The translations under genes and the position numbers were made by a program. Positions 17,119 to 63,666 of a stretch of DNA of 64,000 nt are shown here, one piece after another (positions within the stretch are counted from its first letter, which is position 1; each line of letters starts with the position of its first letter). Below the pieces are notes generated by a model, which saw nothing but the letters and a program-made list of their open reading frames with translations, was not told the origin of the DNA and ran no database searches. Source of the stretch: an uncultured Nitrososphaerota archaeon (GTDB taxonomy: Archaea; Thermoproteota; Nitrososphaeria; Nitrososphaerales; Gagatemarchaeaceae); NCBI GenBank assembly GCA_963718895.1, contig CAVRAG010000004.1, forward strand, positions 325,456 through 389,455, read 5' to 3'.

Positions 17119-17269
17119 GTCCGCGAGTCGGATGGATGGGAAGTAGGTGCCGCGCTGTGTATGATGAATCGTCCCCCTCGACATCTTGGGCATGTTCTAG
17201 TCCGGAACGCTCCCTCATCTAAAGTTATGTCAGAGCTACCCCGGCCGTCCTGGGGATTACATGGTCGGA

Positions 17270-18190
17270 TTAGTTCTGAGCTGGCGATTGACCATCATGA
17301 TGGGAGCGGGGTCGTGGCGGTGCGGTCGCGACCGACTCCGGCTCTTCAGCGACGACCAGCTTCCCTGCGAGCCATGGCTTCATCACGAGGTCCCACCGAG
17401 TAATCACCTTGCCTCCCCGGATCACAAGGCATTCGGCCCCGTGCTTCTGCAGCTTCAGGGCCGCCTCCCCAAGGTTCGTCCGCTGGCCGACCGCGACGGG
17501 TCCGGCGCTCCAGAGTTCGCCTATCGGCGTAACCAGCGGGTCGCGATGAGGCTCATAGACCAGCGAGTCGAGGCTCTCCGGGTTGAGGATGTAATCAATC
17601 ATGGACCTGTCGGAGACGTAGCACCCGTCACCTTCGATGAATATCCGTCTGTACTGGCGCTCGAACATGGTCTCAAGCGCATCGCGGACGGGCGTGTCGC
17701 CCGGCATGGAAAAGATCGGGCTCGCGACATCCTCGGCCGTCATGTCAGTCTTGAGCAATCCCGTGTCATAGAGCCTGAGGACGTCACCGAGCGTCACGAG
17801 GCTCGGCCTCCCGCGTGAACCGGACGCTCTCAAGCCTGCGCAACCGAGCTTCCTGGACCTGAAACAATCCAGCAGCTCCCCGAGCTCCTGGTCTGCTGTG
17901 AGGGAGTCCAACCGGTCCGAGGCCTTGACGCATGGTCCCTGGACAAAAGAGGCAAAGCGCTTGTGCCCCATCGTGACGAGCTTCTCCAGACTCGAGAACC
18001 CGAGGACGGCCCTGCATTCGTCGTTGTCAGAGGTGAGGGGGACCGCAGCCAAGTCCTGCATCCTGAGCAGGTACAGGACGGTGATGAGCGGAAAGTCCGG
18101 TTTTACTATGGCACGCTGCCTTTCGAGTACGAATGGGAGCGCCGAGCCTAGCCGCAATCCTTGTAACCCCACGTGTAGCATAACCCTCAC
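17270..18190 (-). CDS. CBS-domain protein
   Basis: Repeated CBS-like segments (LVTLGDVL, TPVRDALETM, KVITRWDLV). Confidence 0.75.
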   Translation of the reverse strand: MRVMLHVGLQGLRLGSALPFVLERQRAIVKPDFPLITVLYLLRMQDLAAVPLTSDNDECRAVLGFSSLEKLVTMGHKRFASFVQGPCVKASDRLDSLTADQELGELLDCFRSRKLGCAGLRASGSRGRPSLVTLGDVLRLYDTGLLKTDMTAEDVASPIFSMPGDTPVRDALETMFERQYRRIFIEGDGCYVSDRSMIDYILNPESLDSLVYEPHRDPLVTPIGELWSAGPVAVGQRTNLGEAALKLQKHGAECLVIRGGKVITRWDLVMKPWLAGKLVVAEEPESVATAPPRPRSHHDGQSPAQN

Positions 18191-18293
18191 ATCTTAACTA
18201 TTTGTCCGAATTTCGAGAGAGAATTGGTGTTTTTTGCCACTTTTCGAAATTCGGCGGCGGGAGACAGGTTAAAGGCCCCGGGCCGGGCCGCAC

Positions 18294-18548
18294 TTGATGC
18301 AGATGCCTGACGACAACGTCATCGTGAAGGTCTCGAAGGTCCTCGACAAGGGACTAGTCTCGATCCCGCTCGAGATAAGGGAGAAGCTCGACTTGCAGCC
18401 TGGTACCAAGATGATCGTTTTCGCCACGGAGGACGGGGTAGTGCTGAGAAAAGCGGAGCTCTTCTTCGAGAGGGAACCCCCGGCTGGGTTGCTGAGCAGG
18501 ATTCGCGGGATATTCTCAAAGGTCCCGATAAGGGACATAGAGGAGTGA
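18294..18548 (+). CDS. AbrB/MazE/SpoVT-family DNA-binding protein
   Basis: KVLDKGLVSIPLEIREKLDLQPGTKM. Confidence 0.85.
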   Translation: MMQMPDDNVIVKVSKVLDKGLVSIPLEIREKLDLQPGTKMIVFATEDGVVLRKAELFFEREPPAGLLSRIRGIFSKVPIRDIEE

Positions 18549-18607
18549 CTTGGCGGTAGTCTGAAAGCTCTTGCCTGGCTGATGCCGGGTGGTGTCCGAG
18601 TGTGGGG

Positions 18608-18635
18608 GAAACCGACCCAGTTAGGGTCGGTTCCT
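18608..18635. terminator. Hairpin between convergent genes
   Basis: AACCGACCC-AGTTA-GGGTCGGTT perfect stem. Confidence 0.45.
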
Positions 18636-18653
18636 GGCTCACGAACCTGACCT

Positions 18654-19139
18654 TCAGGCCGGGCCCTTGATCTGTCCTGCCGTCGCGCTCATTGATGCCA
18701 CCTGTGCCAAAGGCGCTGGTCCTCTCCACCTGAGGGTCATTATGCCGCCCGCTATACCCAATACCGCTCCTATGACGAATCCTCCCGTCCCTAAGAAGCC
18801 CAGAATGGAGAAGATGACTATCAACAGTCCGAAGAGGACCGACTGGTTCGGGTACACCCTCAGCATGACGCCGGAGCCGAGCACGATGAGACCCGAGATG
18901 AGCCCGAACGAGCCTACCCCTTCCAAGACACCGCTCACGAAGCTGGGAATGTTCTGAGCCGATATCGATCCCATCGGGTTGTTGAATACGGACGCGTTCA
19001 GATGAGGAGTCACGAAGACGGAGACCCCAAGAATGAGGAGCCCGGCCGCGATCATGAGACAGCCACCTACCATAGCGAGTACAGATCCCGTGTTGGGATA
19101 TCCTGTTGCCGTTTTTTGTGAAGTCATTTTTTGAATCAC
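18654..19139 (-). CDS. Gly-rich membrane protein (DUF6114-like)
   Basis: GGFVIGAVLGIAGG, 4 TM segments. Confidence 0.7.
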   Translation of the reverse strand: MIQKMTSQKTATGYPNTGSVLAMVGGCLMIAAGLLILGVSVFVTPHLNASVFNNPMGSISAQNIPSFVSGVLEGVGSFGLISGLIVLGSGVMLRVYPNQSVLFGLLIVIFSILGFLGTGGFVIGAVLGIAGGIMTLRWRGPAPLAQVASMSATAGQIKGPA

Positions 19140-19895: not shown

Positions 19896-21038
19896 CTATC
19901 CGACACTGTTCCAGATTTGCGTTCCTGGAGGCAGTGGTTGAGTGGCGCTGATGCTGAATTGGTCGCCTGCATAGGCGGTCGGATTCTGGATCTGCCCTTG
20001 GACATTCCAAGGAGATGCAGAGTATGACACCGCAGACGCGATGTAGTGCCACACGCCGCTGCTCATGTACTGCGCAGATTGGATGTTTATAGTGTTGAAC
20101 CTGAAAGGAGCTACAGCTGTCGTCTGTTGTTCGAGTAGCACATGCGGCTGGGTCGAGATGGACGCGATACTTGAGCCGAAGTCATAGGTTCCAAATTCTA
20201 TTCCGTTGAAGTAGAATCCCCATATGTCGGAGTTGGGAGCTATGGCCTCGGCCATGAAGGTGTTGTATGAAGGTTGCGAGACGGTGGTCGAAGGCCCGGA
20301 ACTGGAAGACATGGGGGCGTAGGGCAGAGTTGTCACGTTCCATACTTGGCCGAACGGTAGGATCGTGTCGTTTCCCGTCTGGAAGTACCCTACTTGGATG
20401 AAGAGATCGTCCGGGAGGTAGTCGTCGATGAAGACGGCAATCAGATTTGAGGACCTTTCGCCTACCGTGGTCTGGGGAACAGCTTCTATTGTCGCCCTTA
20501 TCCCGGAGTTGCCTGCCATATTGACGTCAGACGATGTGATACCCGTGTAGAAGTAATTGACCGCGTCCGCTATTGAGGTCGTGGTTGTTGTACCCGACGA
20601 TGAGGTGGAGCTCGAACAGAAAGAACCCTCCCCACACGTAGAACTTGACGTGGTGGTGGTCGATATGGTGGTGCTTGAAGTCGTCGACGCAGTTGTGGTC
20701 GATTTGCTTGATTCCGCTGAAGAACTCGAAGTTGTAGATGAGGTGATCGTGATGCTTGTTGTTGAAGGCGGCGGGCTAGTTATGGAGGCTGTGCTCGAGA
20801 TAGTCGTGCTGGATGTGGTAGTGCTTGGGGTGGTTGCGCTTGGCGTCGAGTATGTTGAGGACGATAGAGTCGACTCGGTGGTCGCCAGCTTGCTCACGCT
20901 CTGCTCCCCGAACCTCGTGTACGCCAGGACGACCGTGAGGGACGCTAAAGCTACCACCACCACAATAGCCACTGCCAGTATCTTGCGAGATGGTCCTCCG
21001 GTTGCTATTGCCGTCAAGCGAGCCAGCCTCGTAATCAT
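19896..21038 (-). CDS. Membrane-anchored Ser/Thr-rich protein with a possible glutamic-peptidase (G1/neprosin-like) C-terminal domain
   Basis: N-terminal TM, long S/T linker, then GIRATI...FIQVGY...WGFYFNG...VLLEQ. Confidence 0.6.
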   Translation of the reverse strand: MITRLARLTAIATGGPSRKILAVAIVVVVALASLTVVLAYTRFGEQSVSKLATTESTLSSSTYSTPSATTPSTTTSSTTISSTASITSPPPSTTSITITSSTTSSSSAESSKSTTTASTTSSTTISTTTTSSSTCGEGSFCSSSTSSSGTTTTTSIADAVNYFYTGITSSDVNMAGNSGIRATIEAVPQTTVGERSSNLIAVFIDDYLPDDLFIQVGYFQTGNDTILPFGQVWNVTTLPYAPMSSSSGPSTTVSQPSYNTFMAEAIAPNSDIWGFYFNGIEFGTYDFGSSIASISTQPHVLLEQQTTAVAPFRFNTINIQSAQYMSSGVWHYIASAVSYSASPWNVQGQIQNPTAYAGDQFSISATQPLPPGTQIWNSVG

Positions 21039-21053: not shown

Positions 21054-21073
21054 GATTAATAGTTATGTCCGAA
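21054..21073 (-). repeat. Conserved 20-bp motif TTCGGACATAACTATTAATC (exact)
   Basis: Identical to the copies at 45435, 48071 and 60484. Confidence 0.9.
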
Positions 21074-24672: not shown

Positions 24673-25039
24673 CCGTGGTAGGGCCTCGCGTTAGGGCGGA
24701 ATGGGCTGCACAGACCGACGACGGGACTCTGGCGTCCTGTCACTTCATCACTCGAGTGCAAATTCGTGGAGATGATATATGAAGATTCCTCCAAGGCTGC
24801 ACGGCCGCTGGAGGGCACCACAGAACATGTAAGGTTCGGACGCCAAGAAAGTGAAGGGTGTTACATAACAAAACTACTCGGACAAATGTATAATCAGAAA
24901 TCCTCTCTTTAGTATTCAATGTCTCGCAGCCATCCGCGGCTCGGTATAGCGCTGCTGGCAGTAGTCTATGCGCTGAAACCCTCCTTCGCCGGCACGACCA
25001 GCGCCAGAACCAATATCGCGGCTCCGGCTCGTACCAGCC

Positions 25040-25369
25040 TCATCTGCCCGCGGGCTCTCCGAGCAGCTCAAGCAACGACCGTCCGAAGGGCGTGACCCGG
25101 TACATCTTCACCCGACCGTAGGTTGCATCCTCATCCACCAGGCCGTGCCTGCTCATCACGACGACGTGATAGTCCACGGCGCCCCAATCGAGGTCCAGCT
25201 CTTGCGCGAGTTGCAGCCTGTCCTTCGGCTCCGACAACGCACACAGGAGATTCAGCCGCGTCCTGGCTCCCTTCATCCTTGTGAAGAGATGGAACGTACC
25301 GGAATCGAACCCGAGGCTCTCCCAGCGGGATCTCGTCGTCCCCCGCCATATCCAGGCCCGCGTGCTCAT
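25040..25369 (-). CDS. Winged-helix (ArsR-like) transcriptional regulator
   Basis: GARTRLNLL, QLAQELDLDWGAVDYH, YRVTPFG. Confidence 0.8.
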   Translation of the reverse strand: MSTRAWIWRGTTRSRWESLGFDSGTFHLFTRMKGARTRLNLLCALSEPKDRLQLAQELDLDWGAVDYHVVVMSRHGLVDEDATYGRVKMYRVTPFGRSLLELLGEPAGR

Positions 25370-31465: not shown

Positions 31466-31610
31466 CGCTGCTTACGAGAAACGTGAAGCACTTCGGCGGG
31501 ATTCCTGGCCTTAAGGTCGAGGGCTACTGACCCGGGAGAGCGGACCCGTTCGGAAAGGCGTATAACAAGCCGGCGGCCGGCGAGACTCGACCGGCATGAA
31601 GCGAAGGGCG
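31466..31610 (+). repeat. ~145-bp near-identical copy of 58871-59015 (vapC 3' end, intergenic, MKRR leader)
   Basis: Direct sequence comparison. Confidence 0.9.
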
Positions 31611-44618: not shown

Positions 44619-44638
44619 GATTGATAGTTATGTCCGAA
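44619..44638 (-). repeat. 20-bp motif copy (1 mismatch)
   Basis: TTCGGACATAACTATCAATC. Confidence 0.85.
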
Positions 44639-44698: not shown

Positions 44699-45397
44699 TC
44701 ACTGCCAACAATAGGAGCCTTGTCCGTTCATCACGAATGTGGTAGTTACATTTGCCGAGGGAACATGAAGGGTCACGCAAGAAGTTCCAATCGGTGGAAC
44801 GGTTGCCGTGAAATGATAAGTCGACCCCTGATAGACAACGGTGAAGCTGAGCTGCCCGCCCGACTCTGCTTGATTCGGGAAGACGGGGGTCAGCCATCCC
44901 TCTTGTCCGACGCTGAAGCTGTCTATGTGAACGACCTGTGTTTCGGGAGGGTTTCCGACTATATCGCATCCGAGCGTATCGACTGCATTGACCAACTCCC
45001 CGCTAACCGACGCGTTTGTGGAATCGGATGCTATTCGAATCTGTAGTCCCCCGATTCCGGTAACAACGCAAGAAGTGAGATATGTGTCAGTCGCGTTGGT
45101 GAAGCTTGTTCCAGTAACATATCCAGTGTTACCTGCGGATGAAGTAGTAGGAGCAGAAGTAACAGTAGCTGTGATTGTAACAGTTGTCTTGAATGTGGTG
45201 GTCGTTGTTACGGTTGTGCCGTTAGGAGCAACGGAGAAAACTGTCATCGTAGATGTCTGTGTGTTCGTGATGGCGGTTGTCCTTGTGACGGTGGCGGTAG
45301 CCGCCGTCTCTAAGTAAAGAGTGCCTCCTACGATGAGCGCGGCGACCACTATGGCGATCGCCAGTCGGGAGAAGCTCCGGACCGGTGTAGCGCTCAT
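44699..45397 (-). CDS. Membrane-anchored Thr-rich protein (MS..P.RS leader family)
   Basis: MSATPVRSFSRLAIAIVVAALIV, T-rich linker, Cys-containing C-domain. Confidence 0.75.
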   Translation of the reverse strand: MSATPVRSFSRLAIAIVVAALIVGGTLYLETAATATVTRTTAITNTQTSTMTVFSVAPNGTTVTTTTTFKTTVTITATVTSAPTTSSAGNTGYVTGTSFTNATDTYLTSCVVTGIGGLQIRIASDSTNASVSGELVNAVDTLGCDIVGNPPETQVVHIDSFSVGQEGWLTPVFPNQAESGGQLSFTVVYQGSTYHFTATVPPIGTSCVTLHVPSANVTTTFVMNGQGSYCWQ

Positions 45398-45434: not shown

Positions 45435-45454
45435 GATTAATAGTTATGTCCGAA
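45435..45454 (-). repeat. 20-bp motif copy (exact)
   Basis: TTCGGACATAACTATTAATC. Confidence 0.9.
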
Positions 45455-45546: not shown

Positions 45547-46194
45547 TCATGCGGTTGCCGCGGAAGTCGAGGTGCAGGATATCGCCGGACCCAGGAGGAC
45601 GACCGTGACGTCATTCCCGTTGACGTTGATGACCCCAGAGGGGTTTCCGAAGTTCCACGCCACGGCCATGCTGTACTGGTATTGCCCGTTTGGAACGGAG
45701 AACGCGATCACCGAGGAGTTTGCGTAGGAGGGGCCGGCGGCTCCAGAGCCGGTCGAGACGGGAAAGGCGGCATTCGACGGCTCCACCACGGTCCAAGGTC
45801 CAAGCGTTACGGACCATGGGGCAGCATAGGACGTGGGCGTGCAATCCCCGCTCTGCTTGAAAATCACTTCGTAGAGGCGCGCGCCCGCCGGAAACGTCAG
45901 TGTCCCTGTGACGATCACGGTGGCATTTCCTAGAGTCCGTGTCGAGACGGACGTGATAGTGGTCGTTGTGGTCGCGGTGGATGCGATGGGAGTTCCGATG
46001 GGAGTTTCAGTGACTGTTGAGAGTATTGTGAACGCCGTGGTTGAGATCGACGTGGTGGTCTCTGGTATCGTCTTGGTGATCGTGACAGTGCCCCCAAAGG
46101 TAGACGTGGCGACGATTGCGGCGGCGACTACGACCGCTGCCACGACCATCGCCGCTGCGATTCGGGTGTAACTCCGTGGTGGTTGACCACTCAT
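45547..46194 (-). CDS. Membrane-anchored Thr-rich protein (same leader family)
   Basis: MSGQPPRSYTRIAAAMVVAAVVV; WSVTL...IAFSVPNGQYQY surface-protein beta-domain. Confidence 0.75.
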   Translation of the reverse strand: MSGQPPRSYTRIAAAMVVAAVVVAAAIVATSTFGGTVTITKTIPETTTSISTTAFTILSTVTETPIGTPIASTATTTTTITSVSTRTLGNATVIVTGTLTFPAGARLYEVIFKQSGDCTPTSYAAPWSVTLGPWTVVEPSNAAFPVSTGSGAAGPSYANSSVIAFSVPNGQYQYSMAVAWNFGNPSGVINVNGNDVTVVLLGPAISCTSTSAATA

Positions 46195-46209: not shown

Positions 46210-46237
46210 TGAAGCGTGATTAGTAGTTTTGTCCGAA
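46210..46237 (-). repeat. 28-bp site, inverted partner of 48071-48098
   Basis: TTCGGACAAAA CTACTA ATCACGCTTCA. Confidence 0.85.
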
Positions 46238-47575: not shown

Positions 47576-47586
47576 ACCTCCGTGGT

Positions 47587-48070: not shown

Positions 48071-48098
48071 TTCGGACATAACTATTAATCACGCTTCA
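48071..48098 (+). repeat. 28-bp site containing an exact 20-bp motif
   Basis: TTCGGACATAA CTATTA ATCACGCTTCA. Confidence 0.9.
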
Positions 48099-48124
48099 GA
48101 GACTTTGCACTCAGGCCGCATGCC

Positions 48125-48565
48125 TTGCAACTCGGGAGAACGCTTCTGCTCTCAGTCACCCTCGTCTTCGTAGCCCTCGGCCTCGGAATCTCCATCGGAT
48201 ACGGCATCTCTCCCGTAACGACCCGGACCACCACGCTTACGCGCCTCACCACCTTGGTCGAGACATCCCCGACTACCATAACTCAAACAGGGCCGACGAC
48301 GATAACAGTTGTTGCGCCACCCGGCGAACCCTACACGGTGTACACCGTAACAGAGCAAACCGCCCAGGTCCTAATCGTTGTGCCCGAGTGCGCCACGAGC
48401 TCCGGACAGGTCATCGCCACGACCACCACTGTAGAGGCGAGCACGACCGTGATTTTCATCACCCCGACAGGGATCGACTATTCCGGTGCGGTCTCCTTCA
48501 CCACCGTGACCAATAGCACGTTTGGCATCTCGCTTCGGACGCAGACCGAGAGCACCTCCTGCTGA
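48125..48565 (+). CDS. Membrane-anchored Thr-rich protein
   Basis: N-terminal TM then T-rich body. Confidence 0.7.
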   Translation: MQLGRTLLLSVTLVFVALGLGISIGYGISPVTTRTTTLTRLTTLVETSPTTITQTGPTTITVVAPPGEPYTVYTVTEQTAQVLIVVPECATSSGQVIATTTTVEASTTVIFITPTGIDYSGAVSFTTVTNSTFGISLRTQTESTSC

Positions 48566-50950: not shown

Positions 50951-51040
50951 GGGCCCCTGGAAGGATCCGGGGGGATTTGTCCTTGTCCCGTCCGACAGGG
51001 GTTCTGCTTCATTGGTGGAGTGGTGAAGTTTGTGAGCGCC

Positions 51041-53252: not shown

Positions 53253-53273
53253 GGCGCTGGATGGAGGGTCTCG

Positions 53274-53366: not shown

Positions 53367-53537
53367 GGTGGAAGAGGAGCGCGGGGGAGGCTATAACGGG
53401 CGGGGAGGGCGGAGGTGATTAGGACTGGGGAGGGGGATGAAAGTGAGCGGTCAAATCGAAGAAGAGAAATCTTCGCGCCTTCGCGCTTCGGGCGACAAAC
53501 TTCCAGTCTTTTCCTGTCCTCTCTTCACTAGCGCAAT

Positions 53538-55034
53538 CTACACAAGTAGCAAGAACGCCCATACGGGAATAACAACAGCGTTACTCCCCTCTCTCAATTC
53601 ATTTCTGCTCAACAGTATTCCGGCACGCTTTGAACCGGTCGCCTTGGCGAAATCAATGATTCCGAACTTATCATCTCTCGTGATGGATCTCTGGTACTTC
53701 AGTTCAATTGCCATGTAAGTCAAAGTCGAGTCCTTAAGAACGAAGTCAACTTCACGGCTTTTGTTGCTCCGCCAGTAGAACAGCGATGTCTGGTAATCGA
53801 ACAGCTGCTTCTGTTTGCTGAAAGCGTATGAGAGCCGTACCAAGTGATCCGCAACAACCGATTCCACCAAACAAGCCACATTCCGCTCTTCCCTCATGTA
53901 GTCAACGCACATCTGGAATGGGGCAAGTCCTTTGCACCATGCTCGTAGCGAATGGAAGAAGAATGGATCCTCAAAGAATAGCTTCTTCTCCTTCTCGTAG
54001 GCAGGACTTCCCCTATTGGAATCCAACCGGTACAGGTATAGCAATGCGAAAGTGTCGGTAATGTAGTCAACGTACTCGGCTACGGTGGCATGACTCGCAA
54101 TGTCTGTGCCGTTTCGCATTGTGTTCCATCCGACAGAAGTCCCTTGGGTGTCGAGGATCCGACCTACAACCTGTCTGACATAGGTTTCGCGCTTGCCCCA
54201 TCTCTGCAGATCACCTAGGACCGAGTCAACATAGGTCTTGTAGATTCCCTCGCCAATCTCATTGTTCACTTTATACTCGTTGACCACCCGGGGAATTCCA
54301 CCGGTCATGAGATAGTCCGAAAACAGCTGCTGCAGTTCCTTAGAGTAGAGTACGATTTCCTTCACTATCTCCTTGACCTCTCCCTTGAGAAGCGAGCCGA
54401 AGATTCCTTTTCTTGCTTCAGCAGACAGGAGAACAGGCCCCATTATGTCACTAGCCAATTGAGGGTTCACTGATTCGACGTACTCGGCGAATTTCATGGG
54501 TAACATGATCTTGTCAAGTGTTTGGCTAGAAGTTCCTCTTCTCCCTGGAAGACGTTCTGCGTTTCTCTTCACATCGATAGAATGAGAACCAGTCAACACC
54601 ATCGTTACATTGGCTAGCTTCCCAACATCCGCTAGGTGCTTAACACCGTTCTGCCAATCTTTGACTGATGAGACCTCATCCAAGAAGACATATGCTCTTT
54701 TCCCGGCGATGCGTACCGAGTCACAATACGTGGACACTATTTCGGCAAGAACCTTCGGGCTGTCCACCAGATTGCAAGTGTAGTAGAAGACGTTTTTGGG
54801 GTCAGTAGTCTTGAGTCTCTCGGCTATCATCGTCTTCACCAAAGTTGTCTTCCCTACCTGCCGGGGACCTCTCAAAGTGTATACCGCGTCCTTATCCCAA
54901 TCGAAGAAATGCTTCATTCTGGGCTCCCATTTGATCTTGCTGCGCCTCAAATTGGCGATGTCCTTATCCGACTGAATCGCTGTCTTGTTCCTCCACCACT
55001 TGTTTTGGTCTACCAAATCAATCGGGAAAGACAT
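53538..55034 (-). CDS. AAA+ ATPase with C-terminal DUF4143/restriction-endonuclease-like domain
   Basis: GPRQVGKTT, FLDEV, LTGS, TGGIP, EVDFV...IELKY; visibly AT-richer than flanks. Confidence 0.88.
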   Translation of the reverse strand: MSFPIDLVDQNKWWRNKTAIQSDKDIANLRRSKIKWEPRMKHFFDWDKDAVYTLRGPRQVGKTTLVKTMIAERLKTTDPKNVFYYTCNLVDSPKVLAEIVSTYCDSVRIAGKRAYVFLDEVSSVKDWQNGVKHLADVGKLANVTMVLTGSHSIDVKRNAERLPGRRGTSSQTLDKIMLPMKFAEYVESVNPQLASDIMGPVLLSAEARKGIFGSLLKGEVKEIVKEIVLYSKELQQLFSDYLMTGGIPRVVNEYKVNNEIGEGIYKTYVDSVLGDLQRWGKRETYVRQVVGRILDTQGTSVGWNTMRNGTDIASHATVAEYVDYITDTFALLYLYRLDSNRGSPAYEKEKKLFFEDPFFFHSLRAWCKGLAPFQMCVDYMREERNVACLVESVVADHLVRLSYAFSKQKQLFDYQTSLFYWRSNKSREVDFVLKDSTLTYMAIELKYQRSITRDDKFGIIDFAKATGSKRAGILLSRNELREGSNAVVIPVWAFLLLV

Positions 55035-55124
55035 GTTGTAAGAGCATTTACAAGATACTTATAAATGACATGTAACAGCATCTTTAGTGGGCTAAATGTC
55101 CCAATTATCTGGTTAGCCAGTCGT

Positions 55125-55204
55125 CACCAACTGCCCACGAAGCCTTTCGTCCAGAGTACGTTCTGATCACTATGAGGTATGTCTGGGCTTTACGCGAGTT
55201 GATG
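55125..55204. repeat. attC-like imperfect hairpin
   Basis: CAACT..AAGC..CCAGA-GTAC / GTAT-TCTGG..GCTT..AGTTG. Confidence 0.45.
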
Positions 55205-55353
55205 GGATTACCTGGAGAGGCTTTGGTGAAGAGCTAAACTTCTTTGGAGGAGTCTCCCTTCGCCTTTCGTTTCTCTCGCTCGTCTAACGCAGTCATGACC
55301 GCTTCGGCGGGAGGAAGTGCATCACGCCGGTGCTGTCGTGGTAGAGGAGTTCA

Positions 55354-55373
55354 TTCGGACATAACTACTAATA
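55354..55373 (+). repeat. 20-bp motif copy (2 mismatches)
   Basis: TTCGGACATAACTACTAATA. Confidence 0.85.
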
Positions 55374-55409
55374 AGAAATCTCGACCGCTCTCACCCGGAA
55401 GCCCTCAGA

Positions 55410-55988
55410 ACGAGCAAACAGACCTCCCGAAGCTACCTCGCCATCGCTTCGGCGATAATCGTAGCAGGGGTGCTGATCTCCGCGAGCGTCTTCGTAGCGG
55501 TCGGAGAGCCTCCAAAGACGACGACCACGACGACTATCATCACCACTCTCACGACCACCACTAACACGATGGTGACGATCGTGACCACCACCAGCACGAC
55601 CACGACGCAGACCGGTCCCAAGTACCTCACCGCGTCCCAGGGGGCCGCCGAGGGCGGTCAGTACTTTCTCTATGCCTGTCCGTCGGGGTGCAACTCCACG
55701 AACGGCAACGGCCTCATCACCAGTCCAATAGTCGGCATGACGGTCTTCTACTCGCAGGTGGACGTCAACGCGTCTTCCGGCATGAGCGCCATCGTCTCTT
55801 CTAATCTCGGCGACAGGATCGCCGTCTACTTCGCGGGTCCCACCCCGTACACCGCCTGCTTCGAGATTCTCCTCCAGATGGACGGGAAGAGCGTACAGAT
55901 CGGGACGGCGGTGCCGCCTGGTCTCCAGCTCCCTCCCACAATCTACGTATGGTACGTCGGGCAGAGCTGTCCTTCCAATCCGCCATAG
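55410..55988 (+). CDS. Membrane-anchored Thr-rich protein (leader family), ACG at the expected start
   Basis: In-frame extension (T)SKQTSRSYLAIASAIIVAGVLISAS aligns with the 60539 leader. Confidence 0.65.
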   Translation, partial: TSKQTSRSYLAIASAIIVAGVLISASVFVAVGEPPKTTTTTTIITTLTTTTNTMVTIVTTTSTTTTQTGPKYLTASQGAAEGGQYFLYACPSGCNSTNGNGLITSPIVGMTVFYSQVDVNASSGMSAIVSSNLGDRIAVYFAGPTPYTACFEILLQMDGKSVQIGTAVPPGLQLPPTIYVWYVGQSCPSNPP

Positions 55989-56137
55989 CGCCAGAGGTCG
56001 GCGCTCGGACCGGGCGTGACAGCGGCGAGCAGCACGTTCACGTACACGTTCACCTCACCATGACGCGGACCTGTCAGGGTCGAGTCAAGTCTTGATAATG
56101 TAATCCGTCGAACATGAAGGGATGTTATGTAATGAGG

Positions 56138-56600
56138 TTACTCGGACGGTTCTGGGTAGTCCTCGGTTGCTCTGCGAAAATCTTCTGCTTGTGTAATGTT
56201 GGTTGCTGTGAACGAATTCCTGTTGCCCATACTCAGCCAACTTCCTCCTTGCACATAGTAATCAGGCCTTGAAGTCCTTTCAGAGTTACGCGAGATATTG
56301 CTCTTGTCACTGCTGCGTGGCGCCATGTCCTCGGTTTCAGGTGCTCGAACTCCGAGCTGGCTCTTCCCGTCCACGAGCACCTTCACTTCCCTCCCCTTGA
56401 AGTACGAAAACCTTCCCAGGGTGACTTCGACCTTGTGTACCTCGGAGCTTCCTACGTCGAAGGACCATGTCTTCGCAAGGGGCGAGTAGTGGTATTCCTC
56501 GGCCAGCTTCTCTGCGTCCAGCTCGATGTGGGTTCTCTTCATTACCCGGTCGTGGTCTACTGTAAGTGTGTGCTTTTCCTTCTCTCCGATTCCAAATTGT
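56138..56600 (-). pseudogene. Frameshifted paralog of the 61801 gene
   Basis: EKEKHTLTVDHD / HIELDAEKLAEEY...KTWSFDVGSSEVHKVEV split across frames. Confidence 0.7.
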
Positions 56601-56906
56601 TGTTTCGCCGTTTTCCTTCACCTCTATCTCCAGTCTCTCGCATAAATCAAGAAGACCCTCGACCCCTAAACTTCCATACGCTGCCCAGGACTACCACAAT
56701 CACGGTAAGGACGACAACCAATTCAATCTGATGAGTACCGATCAATTCATGCGACCAGCTTTAGGACCTTCCATCACCGGATAGATGTAGTTCGACAGGT
56801 ACAAAATTTGTACCTAGAGCCGAGGTTTGCTCATGGTTCGTCAGCACTCATCTCTGGGCGGCTTTTTGGAAACTTTATACATCGTCGGAACCTCTTCTAA
56901 CCCAAG

Positions 56907-57979
56907 ACGAAGACGCCAACCCTCCTCGACCCTGAACGGTTGACTATTCTGGAGAGAGCGATCGCTGCGGCGCATCTCCCCTTTTCTGTAGGGTGCCTTG
57001 TCTTTGCGCTCGTCGGGGGAACGCCAGGATGATTCCTAGTCTTCTATCTCGGGACTCACAGCCTGACCGAGGCCTGGAGCAAGACTGCTTCGACGTCCTT
57101 CAACACGGTCTTGTCCAGCGTTCCTCAGGTTACGACCCCGGTGGCGGTCGTGGCGTCAATTCTAATCACCTTCTCCCTCTTCATTGACCTTTACTTGGTT
57201 CGATATCTTCGGCGCAAGATACAAGCGGCGGAACCGGAGCTGTCGGCGCTCGCAGCTGATGGAGCGCCCGCCTACGCCCGGGCCTTCAGAGTGATGGGTG
57301 GCACGGCCGGTATAGCCTTCTTTGCGCTCGTATTCTTCACCTTGTACTTTCCATCGAGGGCGCAGGTCGCACCCGACCCGGTATCCCTGCTAGGTATGGT
57401 CGTGGTGACCTCGATTGCCACTCTCGTCTACGGGAGCGCGTTCTGGACATATCTGAGCGGGCTCTGGGGCGTCTACAGGTTTGGCCGCGAACGCCTAATC
57501 CTGAGACCCTTCTACGAAGACAGGCTGCTAGGTCTTCGGCCGCTGGGCCACGTCGTAACCACTTTCGCACTCATCTTTTCGGTGGCCATTACGGTGACCC
57601 TGAACGGCGAATTTGTAGTAGGGGCAACTGATTCCATCGCAGTCAATCTGGTGATAGTCGCGCTCAGGGATCGCGATGCTCTTCCTTCCCTTGAGGGGAA
57701 TTCACTCGATCATGGACCGAGTGAAAGACGAAGAGATGGCGAAGCTGAGCTCGAGAGGCGAGGGGCTCCTGACCGAAGCCGTGCATGAGGAGCATGGAGG
57801 TGAGCCGACCCTCTCGAGGATACAAGAGCTCCTCGAGATTCAGAGGTTCCAGTTCCTCAAGACTGAGGCGTCGAATATCTCCGAGTGGCCGTTCCAGCCC
57901 GTCCATTGAGAGGCTGGTCGCCATCCTGCTGGCAATCTTGGGTGTCCTGCTGGGTCGACTTCTCGAGCTGATTCACTAG
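56907..57979 (+). pseudogene. Disrupted membrane protein
   Basis: In-frame TGA near 57030, frameshifts near 57665 and 57900; PFYEDRLLGLRPLG, WPF. Confidence 0.7.
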
Positions 57980-58255
57980 GGCCGTACATGGACTACGTGG
58001 CACATCGCAAGGCCCTTGCGTGAGATTATCTCGACGCCGGATTGGTACCCGCAATTGCGCTTCTTTGTCCCTAAAGTGACGGGGCGTCCCGAATTTGCTA
58101 TGACAGCCTTGACGATAGCGGCCGGCTTGGCTTCGAAGCCCTCTTTCTCGAGCAGATTTCCGATGACGATCACGTCTGCGCCAGCCTTGGCGATGGTCTT
58201 CGCCACTTCTGGGTTTGTGAACCCCCCACGATGAGAAACCCAGGGTAGTACGCCT
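57976..58255 (-). pseudogene. 3' fragment of geranylgeranylglyceryl phosphate synthase (GGGPS/PcrB family)
   Basis: FLIVGG/..PEVAKTIAKAGADVIVIGNLLE, the C-terminal TIM-barrel segment of this family. Confidence 0.65.
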
Positions 58256-58307
58256 CGACGCGAGTTCCGTAAGCTCTATATCTCTCTACATATAGATATA
58301 CACAGAA

Positions 58308-58541
58308 TTGGCGACCAAGAACATAGCCATATCGGAGGAGGCTTACGAGCGGCTCAGGGCCCTCAAGAAGCCCGGTGAGAGCTTCACCGAGGTCATTGAG
58401 AGGATGACGCGGAGCAGAGGAATCCTGGACTTGGTGGGAGTGATGTCAAAGTCAGAGGCGAAGGGCGTGTCAGAGAGAATCCGTGAGAGCCGGGAGCAGA
58501 CCTCCCGCCGCCTCCAGCGCACGGTCGAGAAGCTGAGCTAG
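58308..58541 (+). CDS. vapB: VapB antitoxin (DUF217-type)
   Basis: KNIAISEEAYERLRALKKPGESFTEVIERM. Confidence 0.88.
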   Translation: MATKNIAISEEAYERLRALKKPGESFTEVIERMTRSRGILDLVGVMSKSEAKGVSERIRESREQTSRRLQRTVEKLS

Positions 58542-58542
58542 G

Positions 58543-58935
58543 ATGCTGGCCGACACGAGCTACCTCATCGATCTAATGCAGGACGACGAGGCTGCGAAGA
58601 CGAAGGCTGAGGAACTGGTCTCCGAGTCCGTCCCGGTGATGGTCGGCACCCCGACAATCTTCGAGCTGTACGTCGGAGTCGGCCTCGCCATCAAGTCCTC
58701 TGAGGAGAGGGAGAGGGTGCTCGACGTCATCCGGGCATTGACCCAGATACCGCTGGACGCCTCATCGGCCACTAGGGCCGGTATCGTGTATGCGCAAAAG
58801 GTGAGGGAGGGGGCGAGGATCGATGCCGAAGATGCCATGATTGCTGGTATCGCCCTCGAGAACCAGCAGACGCTGCTTACGAGAAACGTGAAGCACTTCG
58901 GCGGGATTCCTGGCCTTAAGGTCGAGGGCTACTGA
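58543..58935 (+). CDS. vapC: VapC PIN-domain toxin
   Basis: LADTSYLIDL, FELYVG, DAMIAGIAL, LLTRNVKHF. Confidence 0.92.
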   Translation: MLADTSYLIDLMQDDEAAKTKAEELVSESVPVMVGTPTIFELYVGVGLAIKSSEERERVLDVIRALTQIPLDASSATRAGIVYAQKVREGARIDAEDAMIAGIALENQQTLLTRNVKHFGGIPGLKVEGY

Positions 58936-59149
58936 ACCGGGAGAGCGGACCCGTTCGGAAAGGCGTATAGCAAGCCGCCGGCGGGCGAGATTCGACCGGC
59001 ATGAAGCGACGGGCGGCTACAGTTCAGCGACCAGTTCCGCTTCGGTCATGGGCTCGCTGTCGGGGGCTGATGTTATTCAGTGAAGTCGCAGTTTGTGGTC
59101 TTTGCGCGCTTCTGAAGCTTGCGTAGGAGCTCTATGAGGGCTATGAGGG

Positions 59150-59798
59150 CCCTGACGGCGCCACGATCTACATCATCAACTGTACAACCGATACACAGAC
59201 GGGCAGTTTCGCGGGACAGAACGACTCCTCACCTGTTGCCTTCGACACGCAGCGGAACCTCCTGTACGTGACAGGGAGTTCCGGCCTCGACATCTACAAC
59301 GTGTTCACCGACACCCTGATTCAGTCGCTGGATGTCGGCCACTGTCAGGGTGCCGTTGCGGTCAACACAGCGACGGACTACGTCTACGTGACCGACTATG
59401 CGGACGACTCAGTCTGCGTGATACAGGGGACCTGGGTCGGCTCTCCGAGCACGAGCTCGTCGTCGACCTCCTCTACTACGTCGGCATCTTCGTCCAGCTC
59501 CGGTTCGAGCACAACTTCGACAAGCGTGACTTCTGCATCGTCATCCCTGAGTACGACGTCCTCGCACTCCGCCATGTCTTCAGAGACGGTTAGCTCGACC
59601 TCCTCATCGGCGGCTACGAGTCAATCGACGGCCTCGATTTCACCCACTTCGGCTCTCACGTCATCATCAAGTGCGGCCAACGACAACTTAACCACTCAGC
59701 GACGGGCGGCTACAGTTCAGCGACCAGTTCCGCTTCGGTCATGGGCTCGCTGTCGGCCGCAGCCGCAGTCATCCCATCGACGGTCTTGGCAATCGTGA
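59150..59798 (+). pseudogene. YVTN/YncE beta-propeller surface protein fragment
   Basis: VAVNTATDYVYVTDYADDSVCVI then S/T linker; no 5' end; bracketed by a 59-bp direct repeat. Confidence 0.6.
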
Positions 59799-59964
59799 TT
59801 GTCCTTGCCGGCGCTTCGAGCAGGTTGCGTAAGAGATAGACTATTTGCCGGCGGAGAGGCGCAATGAACCCTAGCATGGCTAGAGCTTTTCTTCTAGCAG
59901 AGTCGTTTTTTTGAGCCACAACGCTTAACCTTACGAAAGCTGAAGAATCCGGCAGGCAATCGAA

Positions 59965-60483
59965 TTGCAAAGGAGGCTCGCTCCTGTGGCCGTTCTCCTC
60001 GGTGTCGCTCTGGTCGTCTCGGGGATTCTTATTGGAGCGAACCTTGTTCCTGCTAATACCTACCAAGGAACCGCGACGACGGTCGGGAGGACCGTTCCGA
60101 TGCTCGCTTCTGAGACGTTCGCGACAATATCTACCACGACCTTCACCTCGACTGATGCGTCCACTCAGACGTTCGCTGGAACTTCTGTTGTATCCAACCA
60201 TAGGATGGTGCAAATCATGATCCCAAGTCCTCAGAACAACTCGAATTTCCAGCCTTTGTACATACACCTGGTGATCGGGGTCAACAACACCATCGCGTTC
60301 GTGAACCCTAACGGCATAGCTGCGAACATCGAACCGACGTCTTGGCCGAAAGGCGCAAACCCGTCTTATTCCATCGTGAATCCGGGCCAGTCCTGGACGG
60401 TCAGCCTGGATGCTCCCGGTGTGTATCATTACGAGAACGTTTGGAGACCGGTATGGACGGACCTGACGCTGGTCGTGTCGTAG
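59965..60483 (+). CDS. Membrane-anchored cupredoxin-fold protein lacking Cu ligands
   Basis: FQP...GVNNTIAFVN...PGQSWTVSLDAPGVYHY. Confidence 0.7.
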   Translation: MQRRLAPVAVLLGVALVVSGILIGANLVPANTYQGTATTVGRTVPMLASETFATISTTTFTSTDASTQTFAGTSVVSNHRMVQIMIPSPQNNSNFQPLYIHLVIGVNNTIAFVNPNGIAANIEPTSWPKGANPSYSIVNPGQSWTVSLDAPGVYHYENVWRPVWTDLTLVVS

Positions 60484-60503
60484 TTCGGACATAACTATTA
60501 ATC
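60484..60503 (+). repeat. 20-bp motif copy (exact), directly after a TAG stop
   Basis: TTCGGACATAACTATTAATC. Confidence 0.9.
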
Positions 60504-60538
60504 ATCAAATTCACATCTACGCCTCAAGGCGCTTCGGT

Positions 60539-61252
60539 TTGAGCTCTCAACCGGCTCGGGGCTATCTCGTCATCGCCGCGGCGATAGTCATAGCAGGCGT
60601 GCTGATATCTGCGAGCCTCCTTGTCGTCTTCACGAGGCCACCCCAGACGACCACCACGACTGAGACGACGACATCCACCATCACCTCGACCATGATTCTG
60701 CCCTGCGACCTGCCGGTGTGGAACAGCAGCCAGACCCCGTCGAACGAGATACCCGTGCTGCTCATGCAGCCGGGCTCGACTGCGTACGTCTGCGTGACCT
60801 ATCAGTCGGCCTGGCAGGGCAACCAGACCCTGTATAACAACGAGACTCTGAACTCATCCCTTTTCACGAACGGCACGTATCAATTCGGCCTCTACATCAT
60901 CAAGGCGCACTGCGTCGTGAACGCGACCGAGTTCGGATGTGACTCGTCCGTCTCGCACTCCTTCACGATCAGCGCCACCCCTGGTTCGATTCGACCCCTG
61001 GCCACCACGAGTTACGTCACGGTGGTGTACGTAGTCGATGCTTTGAGCAACTCGACGGGATTCTATGACGGTTCAGCGCCGTTCGAGTACTGCTACGCTC
61101 TGCCTATGGCGGTGGGCTACCCGGCCTCCCAGGTCAACGCATCCGACTTTGCTCCGAGGATGATTCACAGCTGCGCGTTCTCGCCGTTCACGCCTTCGGC
61201 GGTCAGCGTCGGAGGGATGAGCGTGACGCACCTCACGTTCCCCACCTTGTAG
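60539..61252 (+). CDS. Membrane-anchored Thr-rich protein (leader family)
   Basis: MSSQPARGYLVIAAAIVIAGVLISAS, Cys-containing C-domain. Confidence 0.75.
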   Translation: MSSQPARGYLVIAAAIVIAGVLISASLLVVFTRPPQTTTTTETTTSTITSTMILPCDLPVWNSSQTPSNEIPVLLMQPGSTAYVCVTYQSAWQGNQTLYNNETLNSSLFTNGTYQFGLYIIKAHCVVNATEFGCDSSVSHSFTISATPGSIRPLATTSYVTVVYVVDALSNSTGFYDGSAPFEYCYALPMAVGYPASQVNASDFAPRMIHSCAFSPFTPSAVSVGGMSVTHLTFPTL

Positions 61253-61385
61253 TCTGAAGGCGCGATGAACTCCGGCGGATGGCAGGCGGTTCTCCAGCAC
61301 CTCAGACAGACAAGCCGCTATTGATCCTGCTGTTCAGAAGGAGCGTCGGCGCGGCGCCCTAGGATTCCGTGGTCTGCGCGCCTCG

Positions 61386-61616
61386 GCAATCTTTTCTGGT
61401 ACCGGGCAAGGGTGACCCTCAGGACCTCCTCGACGTCCACGTTCATCTCGTTAGCCATGCACAGCAGAGAGAAGAGCGAGTCGCCGAGCTCCGCCACCGT
61501 CCTCTCGCTCGGCCTCGCGGCCCCGCGCTTCCCGTAGCCCGAGTCCCTGAGTATCTCCTGGGCGAGCTCGCCGGTCTCGGCGCAGAGGTCGAGGGCCGGT
61601 ACGGCAGGGAGAGCCT
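61386..61616 (-). pseudogene. MazG-like copy lacking its N-terminus
   Basis: LCAETGELAQEILRDSGYGKRGAARPSERTVAELGD, nearly identical to the 50645 gene. Confidence 0.8.
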
Positions 61617-61800
61617 GGTGACGCAGGAGGGGCGCATTCCTATCTACAACTTCCTCAGCGACGAGGAGAGGAGACTGTTCACCACGAAACCCGAAGGAAG
61701 TCACCGCCTGAAGATTCGCAATCACATTCGCAGCAGCCCGGGGTTGCATCAAGGCACGATTAGGATGGCGTCAGTGGCGCAGAGCGCCATATTCTCGGTT

Positions 61801-62085
61801 TCAGGTGCTCGAACTCCGCGCTGGCTTCCCGTCCACGAGCACCTTCAAATCCCTCCTCTTGAAAATTGCGACCAGGGGCAAAGCCATTCCTAGTCTGACT
61901 TCGACCTTGTGCACCTCAGAGGTTCCTACGTCGAAAGACCATGTCTTCGCACCGAGCGAGTAGTAGTATTCATCGGCCAGCTTCTCTCCGTCCAGCTCGA
62001 TGCGGATATGCTTCGTTGCCCAGTCATGATCTACTGTAAGAGTGTGCTTCTCCTTCTCTCCTACTTCGAAACTGGATTTGGTCAT
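61801..62085 (-). CDS. Small beta-rich hypothetical protein
   Basis: MTKSSFEVGEKEKHTLTVDHDW; paralog at 56.3-56.6 kb. Confidence 0.7.
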   Translation of the reverse strand: MTKSSFEVGEKEKHTLTVDHDWATKHIRIELDGEKLADEYYYSLGAKTWSFDVGTSEVHKVEVRLGMALPLVAIFKRRDLKVLVDGKPARSSST

Positions 62086-62208
62086 GGGTCTTGCGAATGG
62101 CGACAGAACATAAAAGAGATTCCGGAGTACAAATTTCGTACCTCCTCTCCGCGCCGCACGTGAAGACCTGGGACTAGGCAGGCGAATACGGGTATGAAGT
62201 CGAGGCGC

Positions 62209-62955
62209 CTACTTCCATCTCGTGAGAATCTCCTCTCTGCTGAATGTGGTCCTGACCAGGAAGAGGAGTACGGCTACGGCTGCCAGGAGGATGCCCGAGA
62301 TCGCGAGGAGGTCGTTGGTGTCTCCAAGGTTCACGAAGTTCCGCTGGCCGGCGAGATAGATTCCGGCGTAGGGAAGTGCCATCAGGTAACCGAGTTGCTG
62401 CGCAGCTCGCACGTCGCTCACTCTTGACGATATCATTACGTTCACCTCGACGCTCAGCATCACCGCCAGAGGAACCAGCACGAGCAGGAAGACCGCCGTG
62501 TTCCAGGTTGGAAAGTAGTAGTACCCCAGCTCGTCGTGCGTCACAGCGTCCATCAGTATCATGAGAAGGGCCGCGCCGCCCCAGACGCTCCCGATGGGCG
62601 GCAGGAACGCTGCAATCCCCTTCCCGAGCAAGATCTCTCCATCCGTCGTTGGGGTGGCCAAGAGCGGCTCCAAGCTCTTCTCTACCTTTTCGCCCACTAT
62701 GGTGTAGGACGCGATGGCGTTCGGAACCACTCCGGCGAGGATGAGGTAGAACGAAAGGAAGGCGGGCAGGAGGATTAAGAGCTCGGCCGGGGCCAAGCGA
62801 GGCCCGCCCTTCCCATACTCCGCATAGTAGACGACGAGCGGAAGAAGCGAGCCGACTATGAGAGGGACGGCCACGAGCGAGTAGATTACGTACTTCTTCT
62901 TCGAGAAGATCTTGAAGTCCTTGGTTGCGATGATCCACGACTTGGAAAGTCTCAT
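62209..62955 (-). CDS. ABC-2 type permease subunit (no ATPase partner adjacent)
   Basis: IVGEKVEKSLEPLLATP, ILLGK, ISSRVSDVRAAQQ, FSREEILTRWK. Confidence 0.88.
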   Translation of the reverse strand: MRLSKSWIIATKDFKIFSKKKYVIYSLVAVPLIVGSLLPLVVYYAEYGKGGPRLAPAELLILLPAFLSFYLILAGVVPNAIASYTIVGEKVEKSLEPLLATPTTDGEILLGKGIAAFLPPIGSVWGGAALLMILMDAVTHDELGYYYFPTWNTAVFLLVLVPLAVMLSVEVNVMISSRVSDVRAAQQLGYLMALPYAGIYLAGQRNFVNLGDTNDLLAISGILLAAVAVLLFLVRTTFSREEILTRWK

Positions 62956-63666
62956 TTCTCGTCCTCTCTTACCAGTTTCAGATAGGTGTCCTCCAAGGTC
63001 GAACCCGACTACAGACAATCCAACGTCTCGGGGGCACGTGGAATGGGCAACGTCCAAGGAGTCCGAGAAGGATTGAGTCCTTGAACTTGTACGTTAACAA
63101 GCCCACTTCAGTGTTTGACTCCCTGCTAAAGTCGATGGAACCCGCGGGCCGCGCCTACAACGACTATCACAATCACAGTTAGGACGACAATCAAAACGAT
63201 TCTTTGAGTAGTCGACAATTCATGCGACCAGTCTTACTGGATTTCCATCCTCAGATAAATACAGTTCGATTCGTACAAGACTTGTACCTGTCCCATCATC
63301 CTCTGTTTCTTGTTTGGGGCAGAGTTCGACCTTCAATCTTCCCCAAAACATAGACTCCGGCCACGAGGAAACCGAAGAATGTCATGAGGAAGTATTCCTC
63401 ATTCGGCGGCGGAGGTATGCGAGCGACATTGTCGTGGGTCCGGAAGACGCTGCTCACCTCCAGGAGTTGGTGATTCCGAACTGGTACGTCCCGTTCACAC
63501 TCATCGGAAACGGCCATGACGCGGAGAGGTACGTGGAGCTGCTCGAGGACGCGTGCAGGACGGTGCTCGAGCCCTTCGCTACCTGAAAACAACATAGTCC
63601 TGCAGTTCGGACAAAGGCGTATAACAGCAGGTTTGCCTATGGATTAGTTGCTGATGGTGTGGAACC

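Follow-up and report, generated by a model that had tools for sequence, protein, structure and literature searches.

A near-invariant, promoter-like box precedes putative surface-protein genes in variable genomic islands of a Gagatemarchaeaceae archaeon

Introduction

The DNA considered here, hereafter the window, is a stretch of 64,000 nucleotides from the genome of an uncultured Nitrososphaerota archaeon of the Gagatemarchaeaceae (assembly GCA_963718895.1, here G000; 3.13 Mb on 11 contigs, 59% GC). It corresponds to C4:325456-389455 (C4 being contig CAVRAG010000004.1), such that a window coordinate is the C4 coordinate minus 325455. The subject of the analysis is a conserved element of ~29 nt, referred to as the box, that is repeated in the window and faces genes whose products mostly begin with a hydrophobic helix.

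To our knowledge, the way in which uncultured, non-ammonia-oxidising Thaumarchaeota regulate their genes is poorly understood, and among the archaeal promoter classes described we know of none that marks the entire secretome. Full-text and keyword searches returned no paper containing the motif and no description of such a promoter class, and the word promoter is absent from the family-level genomics paper as searched (PMC10640624), which gives a GC content of 54-62% for group I.1c/Gagatemarchaeaceae. The window carries PolD and DUF2070 as archaeal markers. The amino-acid composition of the genome is not halophilic, mcrA had no match in it, and neither had amoA, whose absence is uninformative since the family matched no control genome either. 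A small share of the words of the genome was found in runs labelled peat and soil, which together with its GC content would fit group I.1c/Gagatemarchaeaceae.

The archaeal core promoter is described in Sulfolobales by the consensus RNWAAW-TTTAWATR, combining the element recognized by transcription factor B (BRE) with a TATA box centred ~27 nt upstream of transcription start, where a purine is found (bioRxiv 10.64898/2026.06.17.732947, in part). Activators bind immediately upstream of the BRE, e.g., EarA at the Methanococcus fla promoter and the factor of the Sulfolobus ara-box, and archaeal repressors act by steric hindrance in the BRE/TATA zone (PMC5512572, in part).

Results

With up to one mismatch allowed, the 11-mer TTCGGACATAA is found eight times in the window versus 0.59 expected, a count that none of 100 shuffles reached. 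Seven of the matches extend to the full 20-mer TTCGGACAWAACTATTAATC, four exactly and three with one or two mismatches (Table 1), in agreement with the positions, strands and grades reported in an earlier note on this DNA. The eighth, at 7979-7989(-), has one mismatch and lies within an open reading frame (ORF) encoding an HD domain. As this sole match in the first 15.8 kb is a bare 11-mer without the rest of the motif, the statement that this core carries no copy stands. All seven full-length copies are oriented into an ORF, as had been claimed, and the distance of 16-38 nt to the start codon given earlier agrees with start codons mostly 50-57 nt past the first T of the motif, i.e. 30-37 nt past the 20-mer. 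The copy at 60484 does follow directly upon a stop codon (TAG at 60481-60483). The gene at 55354, on the other hand, is not cut at the box as had been proposed: its reading frame is already open just past the box, and the N-terminal anchor is encoded in full (..TSKQTSRSYLAIASAIIVAGVLISASVF..). With ACG in place of the start codon, it may be either a start-codon mutant or a gene with a non-canonical start. The target of the 44619 box is uncertain because the ORF called behind it has no helix, and the protein encoded behind the 46218 box has a C-terminal domain in common with three paralogues on contig C8.

Among the weaker copies listed in the earlier note, the variant TTCGGA(CA)AAGGCGTATA at 31549, 58954 and 63606(+) is real. 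The last of these belongs to a second subclass (class 2, see below), and the other two to a shortened relative of it, TTCGGAAAGGCGTATA. The copy at 24877(+) is likewise confirmed as a diverged box. At 18191-18210(-), the half TTCGGACAAA is present and the rest of the motif is missing, such that its membership is doubtful, and the copy at 17217-17235(-) scored below 8 bits in a weight-matrix scan, too weak for counting. The duplicated stretch 58871-59015 includes, in addition to the variant box, the first codons of the gene 31596-32036, and the 58954 copy appears to head a truncated gene.

Table 1. Boxes in the window and the genes behind them (window coordinates; aa, amino acids).
Feature	Position	Strand	Description
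Class-1 box	21054..21073	-	Exact 20-mer; upstream of ORF 19896-21038(-)
Gene downstream of 21054 box	19896..21038	-	380 aa as called; N-terminal helix, then 60% Ser/Thr stretch; no Pfam family
Class-1 box	44619..44638	-	1 mismatch; downstream ORF 44369-44614, 81 aa
Class-1 box	45435..45454	-	Exact; upstream of ORF 44699-45397(-)
Gene downstream of 45435 box	44699..45397	-	232 aa; N-terminal helix and Thr-rich stretch; no Pfam family
Class-1 box	46218..46237	-	2 mismatches; upstream of ORF 45547-46194(-)
Gene downstream of 46218 box	45547..46194	-	215 aa; N-terminal helix and Thr-rich stretch
Class-1 box	48071..48090	+	Exact; upstream of ORF 48125-48565(+)
Gene downstream of 48071 box	48125..48565	+	146 aa; TTG start at +54; N-terminal helix
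Class-1 box	55354..55373	+	2 mismatches
Gene downstream of 55354 box	55410..55988	+	Open frame, intact N-terminal anchor; ACG at +56 where paralogues have TTG/ATG
Class-1 box	60484..60503	+	Exact; abuts TAG; upstream of ORF 60539-61252(+)
Gene downstream of 60484 box	60539..61252	+	237 aa; helix 10-24, Thr-rich linker 31-50, beta ectodomain
Variant box TTCGGAAAGGCGTATAAC, related to class 2	31549..31566	+	Upstream of ORF 31596-32036(+), MKRRAKLVVAAASII.., N-terminal helix
Variant box, same as 31549	58954..58971	+	Within 145-nt copy 58871-59015 (96% identical) of 31466-31610
Class-2 box TTCGGACAAAGGCGTATAAC	63606..63625	+	Followed by 77-aa ORF 63667-63900(+), N-terminal helix
Diverged box CTCGGACAAATGTATAATCAGAAATC, one base shorter	24877..24902	+	Followed by 58-aa ORF 24919-25095(+), hydrophobic N-terminus
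Half box TTCGGACAAA plus TAGTTAAG	18191..18210	-	Before CBS-domain ORF without N-terminal helix; doubtful member

Across the genome, 45 sites match the 20-mer with at most three mismatches, 17 of them exactly. A weight-matrix scan returned 58 sites of at least 20 bits and only 12 between 8 and 20 bits, which makes the box a discrete class rather than the strong end of a continuum; the reversed genome yielded none of at least 20 bits and a single match above 8 bits. The 58 sites are confined to four contigs (C8, 24; C4, 23; C10, 8; C7, 3), are mostly arranged head to tail, split 48 to 10 between the strands, and 17 of the 20 neighbouring pairs less than 3 kb apart are head to tail. The scan thus answers the earlier question of clustered versus dispersed sites in favour of clustering, and the suggested specificity for islands is borne out, the syntenic core of the window having none. 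On the same contigs, C10:1-7981 and C8:1603000-1611051 both match one region of the sister species G010 at ~80-84% identity. The first part of C10 is therefore a duplicate of, or overlaps with, the last part of C8, be it by assembly overlap, as a second haplotype or by real duplication.

Numbered from the first T of TTCGG as position 0, the logo of the 45 sites reads cgTTCGGACAWAACTATTAATCA.rAA, an element of ~29 nt with sharp edges. Positions 0-20 are nearly invariant except for the W at 8, with G at -1, A at 20 and AA at 23-24 also conserved, and before -2 and after +26 the information drops to nearly nothing, also in the DNA that separates box and start codon. A metagenome set (97 sites, 90 unique contexts and 80 loci among the matches listed) has the same sharp edges in its 89 copies. 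The upstream part also occurs with other downstream halves. The 10-mer TTCGGACAWA is found 58 times in the genome versus four in the reversed control, a helix-first ORF follows 48 of the 58 copies, and the set comprises 35 class-1 boxes, 9 class-2 boxes and several one-offs with other TATA-like halves. In the class-2 box, GTTCGGACAAAGGYGTATW, the TATA half is altered, and all nine genomic copies stand before small helix-first proteins. Judged from these variants, the specificity of the box appears to be carried by its upstream half.

Two further sequences were seen upstream of boxes. Six boxes on C8 (1510065, 1216144, 1512327, 1189481, 1535571 and 1488040) share an additional element of ~70 nt, caatgaaccctatacatggca..ttttacggcatc..ggctagaggttccg, and CTAGAGG-like words are found no more than 25 nt upstream of 9 of the 58 boxes.

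The spacing between box and gene is constrained. In the genome, in the sister species G007 and G010 and in the metagenome, called starts peak 49-57 nt past the first T, and few credible ones lie closer than 42. Most starts called below 42 have an in-frame start codon at 42-56 that fits the conserved N-terminus (checked by hand), e.g., at 42 for a TatC fragment and at 56 for 19896-21038, where TTG at +56 is likely to be the true start; the homologue in G010 (L036) starts at +54. Box-driven genes often have TTG as start codon. Among the metagenome matches listed, 80 of the 89 independent copies have a purine (A or G) at position 43, with 42 and 44 purine-rich too, and the 45 sites of the genome follow the same trend. 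From position 12, where TATTAA begins, it is 31 nt to position 43. Over window 43000-62000, the contigs of X1-X4 amount to only low-depth pieces of 200-400 nt, uninformative on starts and junctions, and their few loose ends lie inside the conserved N-terminal coding part.

Ordinary genes of the same genome were represented by 974 long ORFs with an early ATG. In most cases, their TATA-like hexamers (e.g. TAAATA, TTAAAT and CTTATA in 492 ORFs chosen strictly) have their first base 29-32 nt ahead of the ATG, and nothing conserved, including TTCGGA, was seen further upstream. The spacing suggests mostly leaderless mRNAs transcribed from a loose general promoter.

Genes behind boxes were called by the longest-ORF rule and scored for helices with a simple hydropathy window. 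An N-terminal hydrophobic helix is present in 37 of the 45 genomic box ORFs versus 215 of the 974 background ORFs, and a single helix in 31 versus 83. Helix-first ORFs also account for 32 of 34 in the sister species G007 (14 sites) and G010 (20 sites), and for 74 of the 79 evaluable ones among the metagenome matches listed. At 24 of the 45 genomic sites, the 60 residues after the helix contain at least 30% Ser/Thr. The 45 proteins fall into 26 clusters by composition-corrected BLAST, the largest with 11 members, and are thus of many unrelated families. Eighteen of 25 box-driven proteins scanned match no Pfam family. The matches found are to PMT_2, a membrane protein resembling dolichyl-phosphate-mannose protein mannosyltransferase, a PBP_like_2 binding protein, a secreted Beta_propel protein, a PQQ-like propeller (PQQ_2) and a TatC fragment. 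One member, 60539-61252, was modelled with a mean pLDDT (predicted local distance difference test) of 83.9 as a helix followed by a disordered linker and an all-beta ectodomain with invariant cysteines. It has 101 homologues, one of them labelled Thaumarchaeota; the model gave no Foldseek match at E ≤0.001 (best 0.05), and VIA-align against 48,161 chains returned only generic beta sandwiches with Z ≤4.6. Because of the helix-first architecture, the Ser/Thr-rich stretches, the Pfam matches and this model, the targets of the box are probably an exported or anchored surface repertoire, presumably glycosylated, together with parts of the machinery for its biogenesis.

The PMT_2 gene has a leader of 148 nt between box and gene (C8:1342579-1342727), in which several blocks, e.g., CGTGATGTAGGTGGA and GGAGGA.TCTAT, are conserved in G007 (L020). 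It could be a structured leader or contain a small upstream ORF.

With at most one mismatch allowed, 17 of 22 further species in the genus carry the box, six of them with 14-21 copies and eleven with 1-4, and none of 18 genomes of other genera or families of the order does; the reversed pattern matched none of these genomes. Homologues of one box-driven gene in G009 of the same genus and in G023 of the sister genus have no box. G000 and G007 have an identical box and A-rich tail in front of their PMT_2 orthologues, and the DNA further upstream cannot be aligned. This, together with its presence in most species of the genus, suggests that the box is conserved by selection rather than by recency.

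The regions that carry boxes are mosaic. Positions 1-15.8 kb of the window are syntenic with G010 at ~81% identity, beyond which there are only scattered gene-sized matches, and no alignment with any of the 22 genomes of the genus spans a box in window 43001-63000 with both flanks. Within the genome, a box together with 60 nt of each flank is covered by only three alignments. Blocks of 95-99.8% identity between G000 and G010, versus ~80% in the syntenic core, indicate recent exchange of surface-protein regions between species; near-identical blocks include C7:463384-466113, C7:473338-478759, C8:1219439-1220847 and C8:1222526-1223461 (L089, L090). Three junctions of such recent blocks, at 95-98% identity, lie next to a box, 1, 37 and 567 nt upstream of it.

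The resemblance of the motif to a Xer/dif arm with spacer, proposed earlier, was pursued at the level of sequence. Xer/dif sites have two inverted arms of ~11 bp around a spacer of 6-8 bp and occur once per replicon. In the 28-nt consensus of the box, the longest self-complementary stretch is the 6-nt ATTAAT, and there are 58 copies instead of one. The fully palindromic true dif anticipated in the earlier note was sought in the whole genome as arm-N4..9-reverse arm with up to four substitutions, and the only match was the box against its own flank with four mismatches (control, 0). Tyrosine recombinases (PF00589) have four matches in the genome: two fall into the C8 cluster and another is 3 kb away from the C8:1342579 box; the window, C10 and the C7 cluster have none. 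Among 40 window ORFs scanned with Pfam, there was no recombinase, integrase, transposase, capsid, terminase, replication or conjugation family and no other viral family.

G000 has about ten TFB-like genes, half of them without the N-terminal ribbon, and two TBP genes. Five TFB-like genes (C8:869972-870589, C8:989746-990327, C8:851589-852317, C8:457992-458645 and C4:216257-216904) keep two cyclin repeats, seem to lack the N-terminal zinc ribbon and share a basic C-terminal tail (..RLRKLV..RIEVPA).

Discussion

We propose that the box serves as the dedicated promoter module of a secretome regulon specific to the lineage, a reading that we hold to be probable. All copies are oriented toward a gene and combine the purine-rich ACAWAA with the AT-rich TATTAATC, as in a BRE/TATA promoter, and GTTCGG is conserved immediately 5´ of the BRE in front of functionally related genes, as in activator-dependent promoters. 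With its position, the purine at the expected start distance and the coherence of the downstream genes, this favours the dedicated operator-promoter that the earlier note offered as one of its two interpretations. In the proposed mechanism, ACAWAA at 5-10 would be the BRE, fitting the consensus RNWAAW, TATTAATC at 12-19 a variant of the TATA box, and GTTCGG at -1 to 4 an additional element abutting the BRE on its upstream side, with the conserved A at 20 and AA at 23-24 lying downstream of the TATA part. The purine at 43 is the presumed start of transcription, ~27 nt downstream of the TATA centre, and start codons at 42-60 would then result in leaderless mRNAs or in 5´ leaders of up to ~17 nt. 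A dedicated factor would read the GTTCGGACAWA half and thereby set the whole regulon, and the box genes would be regulated together. We infer such a factor because ordinary promoters show only a loose TATA and because the upstream half persists in class 2; candidates are a paralogue of TFB or TBP with a specialised role and an activator that binds beside the BRE.

On this reading, the box is a known kind of promoter, BRE/TATA with a BRE-adjacent element, and is unusual in its near-invariance, in its ~60 targets and in its location in hypervariable surface islands. It resembles the archaeal core promoter in the ACAWAA beside an AT-rich octamer, the orientation toward genes, the centre ~27 nt before a conserved purine and the presumably short leaders. 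It differs in that ~20 of 29 positions are nearly invariant, whereas ordinary promoters of the same genome have a loose TATA, in a single C between BRE and TATA, in matching the Sulfolobales TATA consensus at only five of eight positions, and in the added GTTCGG and A-rich downstream positions. EarA recognizes four 6-bp sites in front of one operon, for a cell-surface structure (PMC5512572, in part). Like the EarA sites and the ara-box, the box has a short specific element directly 5´ of BRE/TATA that marks related genes, GTTCGG being at the same place, but it is present in a single copy before each of ~60 monocistronic genes, and BRE and TATA are conserved too. The idea of an alternative initiation factor reading the distinctive, conserved promoter of a regulon has parallels elsewhere. 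Haloarchaea have promoter classes specific to TFB/TBP paralogues, and bacteria have extracytoplasmic function (ECF) sigma regulons for envelope genes, although ECF sigma factors are bacterial and mechanistically unrelated, and, in contrast to the haloarchaeal case, no paralogue is tied to the box here.

The other interpretation in the earlier note, a recombination site that doubles as a portable promoter, would make the box a Xer/dif-like or cassette attachment site at which cassettes are inserted, excised or swapped, with its likeness to a TATA box arising by chance. It shares with Xer/dif and integron attC sites that short conserved sequences border exchanged DNA. Homology among paralogues or between species frequently starts 0-1 nt from the 5´ edge of the box or stops at its 3´ edge: within the genome, 35 ends of high-scoring segment pairs (HSPs) lie no more than 300 nt from a box, nine of them 0-9 nt upstream of the first base of the box, and ten HSPs from other genomes of the genus start 1-2 nt before the 60484 box. 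BLAST ends at the edges are, however, expected anyway because a selected, identical 29-mer extends flanking alignments to its far edge. The portable-promoter idea holds as far as homology blocks often begin at the 5´ edge of the box and fails for most recent junctions. Likewise, the expectation that breakpoints coincide with the motif was borne out by one of three recent G000/G010 junctions, that of a 96.6% identical block, exactly at a box, and not by the other two. One clean junction at a box does not make a recombination site. The tyrosine recombinases in or near the C8 cluster could be taken in favour of such a site, but the box lacks inverted arms, is present in many, mostly head-to-tail copies with a strong strand bias, stands 5´ of each gene, bears a probable promoter and mostly has no integrase nearby, and a recombination site leaves the fixed distance to the start codon and the functional coherence of the targets unexplained. 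We therefore regard it as very unlikely; homologous exchange using the box as an identity patch is possible. More specific forms find no support. Against a Xer/dif site stand the absence of inverted arms, of a palindromic full site and of a recombinase among the 40 window ORFs scanned, and the copy number. Integron arrays consist of promoterless cassettes that end in an imperfect inverted repeat next to an integrase; the window, C10 and the C7 cluster have no adjacent integrase, and the box is a promoter-like 5´ element without inverted repeat. Terminal repeats of miniature inverted-repeat transposable elements or insertion sequences flank a unit as inverted pairs and go with a transposase, and neither the predominant head-to-tail order nor the window ORFs scanned fit this. 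Mobile elements might nevertheless have brought the boxes along as promoters of an integrated provirus, plasmid or conjugative element, read by a factor that the element encodes. The clustering in variable regions of C4, C7, C8 and C10 without synteny to sister species and the integrase matches in or near two of them would agree with this, but the exact box was found in 0 of 2.9 million viral contigs, window 44000-49000 had no match in a plasmid collection, none of the relevant families was found among the 40 window ORFs, the targets are cellular envelope proteins including PMT_2, the PBP-like binding protein and TatC, and the box is common to most species of the genus. An origin of this kind is extremely unlikely.

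Two further explanations retain the box as a regulatory sequence. Repression deserves attention as the conservation spans BRE, TATA and 5-7 nt on each side, i.e. the zone in which steric hindrance operates. The 20-mer would then be mainly an operator, and a repressor covering BRE and TATA would keep the surface repertoire silent or partly expressed; a good many of the box genes are variable, located in islands and partly decayed (e.g. the ACG at 55410 and the 81-aa ORF 44369-44614), as would fit genes that are mostly off. Yet the box has neither the dyad nor the direct repeat that a dimeric regulator would need, and its specificity lies in the half beside the BRE, where activators bind (PMC5512572, in part). 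The present data do not separate activation from repression, and we consider an operator in the main sense unlikely. Even less probable is a scenario without any special factor, in which a strong general promoter spread along with duplicating surface genes and was kept uniform by concerted evolution, that is, gene conversion and inter-species exchange. Homology units that begin at the box, the recent exchange between G000 and G010 and the several families with many paralogues are in line with it. The unrelated ectodomains of the downstream proteins are not, and neither are the flanks, since duplication or conversion tracts would carry upstream and box-to-start sequences along and these hold no information. 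The far looser ordinary promoters of the same genome, the class-2 boxes that retain only the upstream half and yet invariably precede helix-first ORFs, and the identical box before diverged PMT_2 orthologues also speak against it.

Several observations weigh against a dedicated promoter read by its own factor. The start at position 43 is deduced from purine preference and spacing, and the near-invariant TATA/BRE half could equally mark the operator of a repressor. The box also has no repeat or dyad, unlike many archaeal regulator sites. Eight of the 45 genomic sites have no helix-first ORF as called, and the background ORFs (at least 200 aa, ATG start) were not length-matched to the box genes. 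Among the DUF7347, TBP and TFB candidates compared, no paralogue or factor is tied to the box. The number of TBP genes tracks that of boxes only weakly across the genus (G013 has one TBP gene and 14 boxes, G008 two TBP genes and no boxes), the phyletic pattern of TFB counts, compared in five genomes, showed no clean match, and the match of DUF7347, a family described below, is imperfect, with a weak partial hit in G007 (51% over 61 residues), none in G013, which has boxes, and a hit in G008, which has none.

One intriguing, if doubtful, possibility goes further than a dedicated promoter: a dedicated initiation factor or BRE-adjacent activator may switch exchangeable surface glycoprotein genes together with a mannosyltransferase, and the 29-mer may double as a homology patch for the shuffling of cassettes. 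If so, the system would be an archaeal counterpart of an ECF sigma regulon, in which cassettes of promoter plus gene are shuffled within genomes and passed between species. In practical terms, the box offers a ready bait with which to fish for its cognate factor, a sequence tag by which surface proteins and the glycosylation enzyme can be predicted in metagenomes, and a defined system for studying the regulation and reshuffling of hypervariable surface-protein islands.

The C4 cluster itself contains two ArsR/DUF7347 proteins, at C4:295400-297900 (L071) and C4:280900-282900 (L072), built of a helix-turn-helix, a membrane helix, a Thr-rich linker and an ectodomain. By this architecture, they look like membrane-tethered one-component regulators. 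Two relatives, P0043 and P0061, have the same ectodomain as the window protein 60539-61252.

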